Source: Malacoraja senta
Lineage: Eukaryota
Direction: 5' to 3'
DNA: 64,000 nucleotides
Assembly: GCA_038087875.1 (NCBI GenBank)
Contig: CM075989.1
Location: 4,030,001-4,094,000, forward strand
Shown: one piece after another, positions 49,201 through 52,200 of the stretch
How positions within the stretch are numbered: position 1 is the stretch's first letter
Layout of the letters: every line of letters begins with the position of its first letter
Position numbers and translations under genes: made by a program
The notes under the pieces: generated by a model
Seen by the model: only the letters and a program-made list of their open reading frames with translations
Database searches by the model: none
What the model was told of the DNA's origin: nothing

Positions 49201-52200
49201 CTAGACAATTACAATGAGTTTAATCAACCTGCCATCATCTGTTTCCAGCACCAAGCATAGTCGAAAAATCCCTCTCACATTGGGAATCAATCCAGTTTTG
49301 TTTCATTGTTTCTTTGGTGTTTTATGAAGGAAAAGGAAGAATCCACTTTCCTTCCCCTTCTGCACCAGTTGACCAAATTAAGTATGGTTTAGAAAAAGGC
49401 TGATGTTGGAAACATTATTTTACTTTGCTGGCATTACAGAAAGGTTTTTTCAAAATGCCTGCATTGTAATATTCTTGGCTCAAACTCCTCAGGATTGGGA
49501 GGAGGGGAGGGAAGTGAAATTAACCTTGTTACTGAGTAAATGATACATTTTTTGTACCCCCACCAGTACATCCACGGTTACACAACAAATGCTGCACATC
49601 TTCCTGCAAGATTTGAGAAATTAGTAAGTAATAAGCTGCTGATTTATTCTGTGTAACTTGTTTTGAGGGGAGGGGATAATTAATATTCCTCATTGTCCCT
49701 CCCATAAGATCGTTGGTAGACCATTAAGCCTCTCCACATTCCACCTATGTTGTTAGATCATCACCAATTTCCAGTCCCGTTTTATTTAAGTATCTTTGTA
49801 TCCCTCATTAAACTTTCAGTTCATTTCACCTCTCTGGAGTGTAAGAGTTCAAAATCTCCACCACCACCTCTGCAACAGAAGTGCTACCTGATTTCACATT
49901 ATTATCCTCAGAGATACTGCCTGAGCTGCTGAGTTACTTCAGCTCTTTGTCTTTGTTTATAAACCTGCATCTACTGTCCCTTGTGTCTGGTTAGCAACCT
50001 ATCCCTTCAATGTAACCCCTAAACCCTTGGTTTCATTCTGTGGTGTCTGTGCCACATCCTCTCCAAGCCAATCTATCTTGACTGAAGTGCAGAACCCAAA
50101 CCTCTGCGCAATATTTGGGATGGTATCAAACCAAGCCATTATTCACTGAAGCATCACTTGCTCAGTTTTAAGTTCCATCAAAATACACATGACCTAGTTT
50201 GTGAATTGCAATCATTTATTCCTTCACTTGGTTCTCCCATCTTAGAAAACAACGCGACTTGTCTTTCATACATTACAAAAATGTATTTTGACTCATTATC
50301 TTCTTCACTTAGTTAACCATACTAAAGGTTTTTCTCCTCATCTATGGCCTCCATTACAACTGCCATTTTATTTTATGTTATTGTTCTATTGGGAAAACAT
50401 TTAAAAGTACTCATTTATCATGTCTGCCATTTTCTTATTACCAGTTTATAGTTGCAGATCACATTTCCCTTAGTGCTGTAACTTGCAAGTTGTACCTTCT
50501 CAGCGATTCATCCCAAATAATTTACTACAGAGTCACCACTTTAAGTGTACAGCATTCTCTCTCTTGACCAGTGTCAAGTATTCATTAGACAATAAGCGAG
50601 TTCGGTATTCTGAAAAACGCAAGGAATCATGGGATTTGTTAAAGGTCATCGCTATAAATAAAAATCGAACAAAGCGCTGTAGATTCTGTGAGTATAGCTT
50701 GGGTCCGATTTTTAATTTTTTTTTTCAAGTTTGTATTTGTCAGATGGCAGATAGAGGGGGTAGATATAGGGGGGGGTAGACTGGACCTGCTCTCGGATGC
50801 TGCACGCACACAGGACCGCTCCTCATCCGCAGCCACGATTGAACTCGTGTCCCCGGCGCCGCAAGCGCTGCCAAACCGCCACTGGACCGTCCCCGGTCTC
50901 CCCCCCCCCCCCCCCCCCACTCAAGTGACCCATCCCCGCCCAGGACCACAGCCAGCGTGGAGAAGCGCCAATTCCAGCCCAACCCCGCTCCAACTCCAGA
51001 GGAACACGCTCCCCGATGGGCCGCAGCGGCGACAAGTGCCAGTTCGCCCACGGCCTGGCCGAGCAGCGCTCCCTCTGCTGCCACCCCAAGTACAAGCCAC
51101 TTGCACACCACTTGCACCCCTACGATACCCGCTGCCACTTCATCCACAACTCCAAGGAGGAGCAAGGACCCCGGCCTCGCCTGCGCCAGCCAGGGCTCAA
51201 CCTCCTCAGGCCCGGCGCTCGACTGTGCCGCGCAGCGGGCGGCCTTCAGCCCCGACCTGGAGTTGGAGCTGGCCCGGATTTTGGGCTTGAGGCTGGGCAA
51301 GGGAGGGGGAGGAGGTTGCTGCTGCCGCAGGCACCACCAACAGCTCCAGCGGGCGCCCGGCCTGCCAATGGCCGGCAGGAGCCCGTCCGCAGACTCTCTC
51401 TCCGACCAGGACGACTCCAGCAGCAGCAGCTCCAAGTCACCCGTCTTCGAGCAGGGCCGGCGGCTGCCCATCTTCAGCAAGATCTCGGTGTCGGACTGAG
51501 GGGAGGGGGGTGGAGGTGGAGGGCTGCCGGGACCAACCCGGGGCGACAGGCAGAGCCGAGCTGGAGCCAGCGGCTGCAAGTCCGGGGCCGCTCCGCCAGC
51601 CCAAGGCCACCCCGGACAGGGACGGGACGGGGACGGCCCACAGCAACTCAACAGCACCCGCAGCGACTGAGAGCTGGGCCCGACCCCGACCACGGACGAA
51701 ACGCAAGCCTGCACACAATGCAGCACCACTGTTGCCGAGACTGTTTTTCGCTTGTGGCCTATGACCTGGGCATGCGCAGTCGGAATACCGAACTCGCTTA
51801 TTAACTTGATATTTTTTAAAGTATAAGGCTTATGTTATTTGTTGGCAAATGTAAAGCATGGTGTAATTTGCAATTTTGTCATCTGGATTTATCCCTTTGG
51901 TAAATGACAAAGTCAAAATTATTTTAATAACTGTTTTCCCTTATGTTTAATGCTATATATATCTAATTTAGTCCTATGTTTTCTAGTATGTGAGAGGATC
52001 AGTTGCTGAAAATATCAATGTTGCATTTTCTTTTACAAACTGTGCTACCACCTGAGGGCAGCAAATCAATGCACTGCTAATTTGTGTGCAGCAAATGAAT
52101 GCTGCTAGTTGGTGGAGACGTTTGAAACAAGCTGATTGATGTTCACAGGGCGGCACAGTGCGTAGCTGGTAGAGCCTCTGGCACCACAGCGCCAGAGACC

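Follow-up and report, generated by a model that had tools for sequence, protein, structure and literature searches.

A 1.2-kb GC-rich block in an intron of FANCI in the skate Malacoraja senta is confirmed as a single copy of a non-autonomous DNA transposon. Its interior carries a piece of the host gene ZFP36 (tristetraprolin, TTP), and the family to which it belongs has multiplied that piece to hundreds of copies. The overall explanation, which is considered highly probable, is that an ISL2EU-type element captured host coding DNA and then spread it, making this a Pack-ISL2EU. The block was found in the window, the 64,000-nucleotide stretch of DNA analysed here, and positions given without a locus or contig are those of the window.

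The block is bounded by 23-nt inverted repeats (50591-50613 and 51780-51802) that are complementary at 22 of 23 positions. The terminal inverted repeat (TIR) 20-mer occurs twice in the window, and a match was found in none of 100 shuffles of it, so the inverted repeats described in the initial annotation are upheld. That annotation took the full 23 bp as the TIR; the repeat stands, but its length does not. Because the outermost three bases of each arm are most simply target DNA, the TIR would be 20 bp, with true ends at 50594 and 51799. GC content is 0.64-0.72 across 50800-51799, against 0.27-0.41 in adjoining DNA. Of the translated frames, one contains KCQFAHG...HPKYK...RCHFIHN and a second [13 protein letters not shown]; as had been claimed, the 1.2 kb has no transposase-like ORF.

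The ZFP36 remnants ascribed to the whole block are present, but they are confined to 51020-51521; the other GC-rich sequence is that of a parent element. This cargo starts halfway through finger 1 and runs through finger 2 (frameshifted in the window copy) and the C-terminal region to the stop and ~25 nt of 3'UTR. Its C-terminal letters resemble the motif with which TTP interacts with CNOT1. A secondary deletion brought the segment 51522-51691 up against the cargo. FANCI exons flank the block, which therefore sits in a FANCI intron, as originally placed: exons matching FANCI_S4 lie on either side, and the exon at 49567-49627, taken alone, gave no Pfam hit.

As a separate observation, the GC-rich interior of the non-autonomous family (50738-51019 and 51522-51691 in the window; L033-L072) has no match to the autonomous element or to the donor gene. 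Among members L033-L072 it is rearranged and partly inverted, and it may hold DNA captured earlier.

Table 1. Features of the element and its host locus in the window.
Feature	Position	Strand	Basis or remark
FANCI exon	47736-47911		FANCI_S4 positions 76-131 (Pfam match)
FANCI exon upstream of host intron	49567..49627	+	Splice-site scan; fills FANCI_S4 132-153 gap
Left AT target-site duplication	50592..50593	.	Target W|AT|W; A at 50591 is flanking target
Left TIR, 20 bp	50594..50613	+	Also on full-length ISL2EU copies L181 and L182
Left subterminal end, ~145 nt, common to autonomous ISL2EU	50594..50737	+	84-86% to family consensus
GC-rich interior of cargo-less parent, left part	50738..51019	+	Absent from autonomous element and donor
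ATG from parent element, in frame with captured ZFP36 codons	51016..51018	+	Subfamily consensuses
5' capture junction, 4-bp microhomology GCCG (parent and donor)	51020..51023	+	56/85 copies start at same donor base
Captured ZFP36/TTP exon-2 fragment	51020..51521	+	Aligns to donor L086:4659-5251
Codons of C-terminal [13 protein letters not shown] motif and stop	51458..51499	+	CNOT1-interacting motif by likeness to TTP
GC-rich parent interior, right part	51522..51691	+	Same junction sequence in cargo-less L060 and long-form L077
Right subterminal end, ~110 nt, common to autonomous ISL2EU	51692..51799	+	82-84%
Right TIR, 20 bp	51780..51799	-	Inverted-repeat match
Right AT target-site duplication	51800..51801	.	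Flank comparison
FANCI exon downstream of host intron	54687..54746	+	FANCI_S4 154-173, E 5.8e-6

The element is one of many. Used as a query against its own genome, it gave 2969 first-look candidates; all 40 that were scored matched, the window copy included, and both ends were reached in 24 of 30 fetched loci. Occurrence of the TIR elsewhere in the genome had been set beforehand as a test, and an exact 19-nt TIR pattern has 691 matches there, while its reversed control has none. A 23-nt motif from the cargo tail, allowing up to two mismatches, is found at 275 places, a count from which ZFP36L1 and ZFP36L2 are excluded by differing from the motif at three positions. Since one of the 275 is the donor, there are at least 274 cargo copies, a floor that bears out the amplification suggested earlier.

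Thirty loci picked by TIR match alone, in genome order, contained cargo in 12 cases (10 of 28 distinct elements); the cargo is carried by only one subfamily of a larger non-autonomous family. In the 30 loci from the first genome search, the TIR matches exactly at only 19 ends, roughly one in three. Because the exact pattern catches about one third of ends, a rough estimate puts the whole family at ~1,000 elements and its cargo-bearing part at roughly 300-400. Sequence words of the element are also present in sequencing runs of nine organisms. In the one run compared from a clearly different organism, H, whose flank is ~96% alike, summed cargo depth is ~100 to 370x that of the flank, which fits a high copy number, although such a ratio is not a count. 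A contig of organism H spans 51776-52179 with only 27 letters inside the element, below the 31-letter bar, and is no more than suggestive of an orthologous insertion.

Target sites were characterised in 70 full elements with distinct left flanks. Boundaries of the form AT|AAGCG...CGCTT|AT were found in 59 of the 70, and the base outside the AT is A or T, varying per side (outer A in 55/70, outer T in 57/70). Longer target duplications (3-10 nt, at four end offsets) did not exceed chance, those of 5-10 nt never rising above 1/70 at any offset. Seven elements had flank-spanning hits to empty paralogous repeats. In four (L014, L049, L078 and L104) the empty site is 4 nt (AATT-like) and the filled one 6 nt; L069 gave 5 nt, and the other two cases were uninformative. 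Since 4 nt become 6 nt, insertion adds two bases at W|AT|W. Target duplications typical of Tc1/mariner (TA), hAT (8 bp) and MULE (9-11 bp) were not seen, and the empty sites fit AT, not TA, in the 6-nt site, so these superfamilies were rejected.

As AT is palindromic, its duplication is, by sequence alone, formally equal to T...A ends without duplication, and the autonomous partner therefore matters for the superfamily call. ISL2EU inserts at A|AT|T with duplication of AT (PMC4482050). Given the AT/W|AT|W rule and full-length ISL2EU copies with the same ends, the carrier is a non-autonomous member of ISL2EU. The duplication and superfamily that the initial annotation had left open thus now point to AT and ISL2EU, while the ambiguity of the palindrome stays.

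The partner was located through the nuclease-type ORF of such elements. A YqaJ search of the genome gave 32 places; no TIR was seen at 30 YqaJ loci with 1.5-kb flanks, and the partner appeared only in wider flanks. L181 (4.7 kb) and L182 (5.4 kb) have the same TIRs and the same shared ends of ~145 and 110 nt as the window family. Each also has the remnant of a YqaJ-type ORF (for L181 a Viral_alk_exo domain, for L182 a YqaJ domain at E 2.3e-9) and, convergent with it, the remnant of a transposase of the type found at L113. The L113 ORF, inside a copy with both TIRs, encodes an intact 527-aa transposase with THAP, HTH_Tnp_4 and DDE_Tnp_4 domains; the YqaJ of that copy is frameshifted. Ends start AAGCG in non-autonomous and autonomous copies alike. 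The loci examined include no copy that keeps both of the ISL2EU ORFs intact, and the autonomous partner with the same TIR, which the initial annotation proposed to look for, is represented by the decayed L181 and L182 and by L113.

Several observations concern the L113 transposase itself. It belongs to a full-length cognate ISL2EU (L113:424-2004; G000:C4, ~41.093-41.105 Mb; L148, L224) and is 97% identical to a Leucoraja protein, while the sibling copies examined are broken or partial. dN/dS on the L113 branch is 0.84 versus 0.91-1.36 in six siblings, which is not significant by itself, and the transposase is a candidate for domestication. Among the best 120 of 1046 L113 homologues, most of the named non-skates belong to marine invertebrates (oyster 54%, sea urchins and amphioxus among them), a few are teleosts, and no shark or ray is named apart from skates. 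This distribution hints that ISL2EU may have entered skates horizontally. Lastly, a Rhinoraja protein annotated as SETDB1-like (P0199) has the THAP part of this transposase as its first ~270 residues, followed by SETDB1 domains, and is either a gene-model chimera or a real fusion.

Other candidate partners were rejected. The ends differ both in a young Harbinger family (the L134 group) and in another ISL2EU family (L146/L185), and widely spaced TIR pairs proved to be two separate elements (L063), a cargo copy split by a LINE (L064) and a cargo copy with an insertion (L065). This second ISL2EU family (L146:2231-7325, L185, L147) has GG-type ends and a YqaJ-PHD ORF, and was recently active, as its copies are ~98% alike. 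The Harbinger-like family (L143:1457-6741, L116-L142) is abundant and young, ~5.3 kb long with a 478-aa transposase, many copies being 96-99% alike. Four tandemly spaced, stop-free YqaJ-domain ORFs of 420-588 aa without this TIR (L150-L152, L178; G000:C8, 25.29-25.36 Mb) may represent a cluster of host genes that descend from a YqaJ nuclease.

Alignment identifies exon 2 of the host ZFP36/TTP gene as the donor of the cargo. This gene (L086) is on a separate unplaced contig, C3041, and includes an N-terminal coding part missing from every copy. No TIR is present in the 5.3 kb available there, of which only 135 nt lie past the stop before the contig ends. The subfamily consensus has 8 mismatches to the donor over 537 aligned bases, low-complexity indels aside. 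Exons of MED29 (C3041:23087-25103) lie on the same strand ~72 kb upstream, the arrangement that human ZFP36 has as well. Tis11B_N was found only at L031 and L032, not in the donor; by this domain and their tree position, these loci were named ZFP36L2 and ZFP36L1, respectively. Neither was retained as donor, as their match to the consensus is limited to ~150 nt in the fingers, at 80-81%, plus a short tail. The tree of the cargo against the ZFP36 family that had been proposed was run as a quick tree only, and it groups the cargo with the skate ZFP36-like P0001 and P0002 at support 99, apart from L031 and L032. Donor alignment, MED29 synteny and this tree all favour the earlier view that the cargo is most like ZFP36 itself rather than L1 or L2. 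The nearest protein to the cargo is from Rhinoraja (86% to a decayed copy).

Two features of the donor locus deserve mention. Two single-base indels in C runs (L086:4680-4860) break the assembled host ZFP36 frame and are probably long-read sequencing errors. Long-form copies (L087 and L077, compared with L086:5254-5261) keep ~80 nt of 3'UTR-like sequence without counterpart in the present donor, and may preserve the ancestral ZFP36 3'UTR.

The capture junctions are shared. In 56 of the 85 distinct cargo copies, the cargo starts at one particular donor base within finger 1. Its end lies ~25 nt past the stop in 47 copies and ~80 donor bases beyond that in 14. Because these breakpoints are common to most copies, a single capture event is indicated. 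Cargo-less parents have this sequence in common up to GCCG and then diverge, and the donor has GCCG at the same point. In the long form the donor match ends inside the 3'UTR, with ~7-10 nt of filler before the return to parent sequence; the final six letters of this filler repeat, in inverted orientation, six that lie immediately upstream, which may mark fold-back during repair. Comparison of cargo-less L060 with long-form L077 shows ~270 nt of parent replaced by ~670 nt. As a possible cause of a break, long internal inverted repeats were sought in the consensus and L060, where only short, degenerate ones were seen, and this cause was dropped. With TIR-flanked cargo, a cargo-less parent and a donor without TIR, the central claim of the initial annotation, that a non-autonomous TIR transposon captured ZFP36 coding DNA, is supported.

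The following course of events would account for these data. An ISL2EU element with a THAP-HTH-DDE transposase and YqaJ would have spawned a large non-autonomous family that kept its ends. An interior break in one member would then have been repaired by a template switch to host ZFP36 exon 2, probably as DNA rather than RNA, entering at the 4-bp microhomology, copying ~670 bp and returning with short filler at the loss of ~270 bp of parent. Acting in trans, the ISL2EU transposase would have carried this single chimera to W|AT|W targets. Further subfamilies may have been founded when master copies later underwent two deletions, on the 3'UTR side and then the 11-bp finger-2 frameshift, the window copy being a further-deleted member of the last that came to lie in the FANCI intron and decayed neutrally there.

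Copies could in principle also arise by segmental duplication or assembly redundancy rather than transposition, and some loci do share flanks, namely the pair L019 and L021 and, on contig C13, a series of places that are nearly identical. However, 59 of the 85 cargo copies have both TIRs and distinct left flanks ending at the TIR, with AT..AT in 48 of the 59, copies are spread over many contigs, and empty sites exist. Duplication is therefore refuted for most copies and, with almost no probability as a general account, only slightly lowers the number of independent insertions. On C13 itself (G000:C13:44-201 kb; L099, L106-L111), seven long-form cargo copies occupy a repeated block near the contig start, for which segmental or tandem amplification and assembly redundancy are candidate readings. 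Capture might alternatively have passed through RNA, with ZFP36 mRNA or a partial cDNA patching the element, or a 5'-truncated retrocopy trimmed before amplification, and ISL2EU spreading the product later. The cargo resembles 5'-truncated retrocopies in starting mid-gene, lying wholly within one exon and running into the 3'UTR; the fetched loci often contain LINE reverse-transcriptase ORFs, and bat Helitrons are described as having amplified nested retrogenes (PMC4224331). Yet an A8 run is absent from the 100 nt next to the cargo end in all 78 copies, the junctions show no duplication flanking the cargo itself, parent sequence was lost rather than duplicated, the 5' junction has microhomology, and the longest form stops inside the 3'UTR while the donor continues. 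An ordinary processed pseudogene, already judged a poor fit, was rejected for want of poly(A) and of a duplication flanking the gene piece. Neither outcome named in advance as contrary to transposon capture, a TIR found nowhere else or cargo with its own poly(A) and target duplication, occurred. Because the cargo spans no intron, an RNA template keeps a small share of the probability, but it is unlikely against capture from DNA by template switching.

Amplification of the chimera left three nested forms: one with the long 3'UTR and intact finger 2, a short one with intact finger 2, and a short one with the 11-bp finger-2 frameshift. Their median non-CpG divergences from consensus are 0.055, 0.049 and 0.045 in that order (n=5, 21 and 25), which, with overlapping ranges, fits the succession implied by the deletions. 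In-frame copies are over-represented, many having been picked by protein search, and subfamily sizes are not inferable from the sample. The window copy is a short form with extra deletions in finger 2. Both older subfamily consensuses contain a 171-172 aa open frame from the element's ATG to the ZFP36 stop, comprising half of finger 1, finger 2 and a CNOT1-type tail. The first half of finger 1 is missing from all copies, and the combination expected of a functional ZFP36-family protein, two intact tandem CCCH fingers that share a frame with the C-terminal motif, was not found in them. The frame stays open as far as the stop in four of the 85 copies, thanks to compensating shifts in three of them and in register in L089.

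Retention of the cargo for a function, whether as a 172-aa fragment with one finger and the CNOT1 motif or as RNAs acting on host ZFP36, would agree with the consensuses open from transposon ATG to ZFP36 stop, with the whole register kept by L089, with dN/dS of 0.76-0.82 in the in-frame subfamilies and with 239 element reads among 7.3 million in one poly(A) RNA run of another organism. However, those subfamilies were picked by protein search, and the lower dN/dS is attributed, though unproved, to the resulting bias; 25 DNA-picked copies give 1.0, as in neutral decay. L089 (1/85) has changes in conserved finger residues, and no truncated ZFP36 protein of this kind was present among 13 hits of 94-301 aa in the protein collection. 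The 239 reads are few, fall on both strands, lie mostly at ends common to cargo-less elements and reveal no start site; they neither show nor exclude expression. Functional retention is thus quite improbable, and the copies are most likely neutral passengers. The tethered TTP tail alone recruits CNOT1 and speeds decay (PMC9476947), and for this reason a truncated ZFP36 fragment could in principle interfere with host ZFP36. A more far-reaching scenario, itself unlikely, is that capture created a transposon-borne gene. The element's ATG would have opened a 172-aa ZFP36 fragment, with a CCR4-NOT tail and poor AU-rich RNA binding, and its expression by early masters would have done enough harm or good to mould the family. 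By escaping the cost, the frameshifted subfamily would then have become dominant, and the hundreds of ZFP36-homologous copies would have laid the host gene open to transposon silencing; the intact transposase at one locus could be a domesticated part of this history.

The element belongs to a known kind, the Pack-TIRs: TIR-element sequence lies on both sides of the cargo, the parental gene is identifiable and several insertions are separate. In the consulted part of PMC8277862, 370 animal Pack-TIRs are published, 87% of them carried by hAT or Tc/Mariner, and the vertebrate references hold four multicopy cases, with 3-5 copies where described. The initial statement that such capture is little documented in vertebrates is thereby qualified: animal cases are numerous, but high-copy ones are rare. 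The skate family shares with those described there a non-autonomous TIR element, a host-gene piece inside it, a TIR-free parental copy, separate target sites showing repeated transposition and breakpoint microhomology (PMC8277862). It differs in its copy floor, its ISL2EU carrier and its coding cargo with an in-frame start.

Further comparisons place the carrier and its cargo. As described in the consulted part of PMC4482050, autonomous ISL2EU is ~4.8 kb, with a THAP-HTH-DDE transposase and a YqaJ ORF; this architecture, the A|AT|T target and the AT duplication are common to both. TIRs there usually begin with GG, a tendency rather than a rule, whereas those of the skate family begin with AA; the window element differs further in being non-autonomous and in having host cargo. 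ISL2EU was undetected in the non-teleost fishes tested in PMC9179366, elephant shark included, so far as the consulted part of that source goes. Plant Pack-MULE and Pack-TYPE elements, including Pack-PIF with its large clusters, likewise capture and spread coding DNA by TIR elements, related PIF/Harbinger among them; the part of PMC8903248 consulted names CACTA, hAT, PIF, Mariner and MULE, not ISL2EU. Bat Helitrons also spread host gene pieces at high copy, with 12,382 copies over all captured sequences, but they are rolling-circle elements without TIRs and have another mechanism of capture and transposition (PMC4224331, as consulted). Compared with ZFP36/tristetraprolin itself, the cargo reproduces the 3' part of host exon 2 almost exactly; it lacks the N-terminus and half of finger 1, is frameshifted in most copies and is not a functional family member. 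The literature search found no report of this element or of ISL2EU in skates, nor a paper combining 'skate genome' and 'ZFP36'; a repeat-library entry may exist, as Repbase/Dfam and the supplements of PMC8277862 and PMC4482050 lay outside that search.

What is new for a Pack-TIR is the ISL2EU carrier, here placed in a cartilaginous fish, the coding cargo and a copy number ~100x that of the vertebrate cases compared. Almost all published vertebrate Pack-TIRs are single-copy relics, a record that favours the view of animal TIR transposons as rarely spreading host genes; here, coding DNA has been amplified in a vertebrate as it is in plants, to hundreds of copies. No effect on the host is shown, and the spread occurred without detected host function. 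Such copies can nevertheless mimic an expansion of the ZFP36 gene family and draw reads from the real gene. Autonomous element, cargo-less parent, donor gene and nested subfamilies are all retained in one genome, and the mechanism of capture and the turnover of subfamilies are therefore directly testable.
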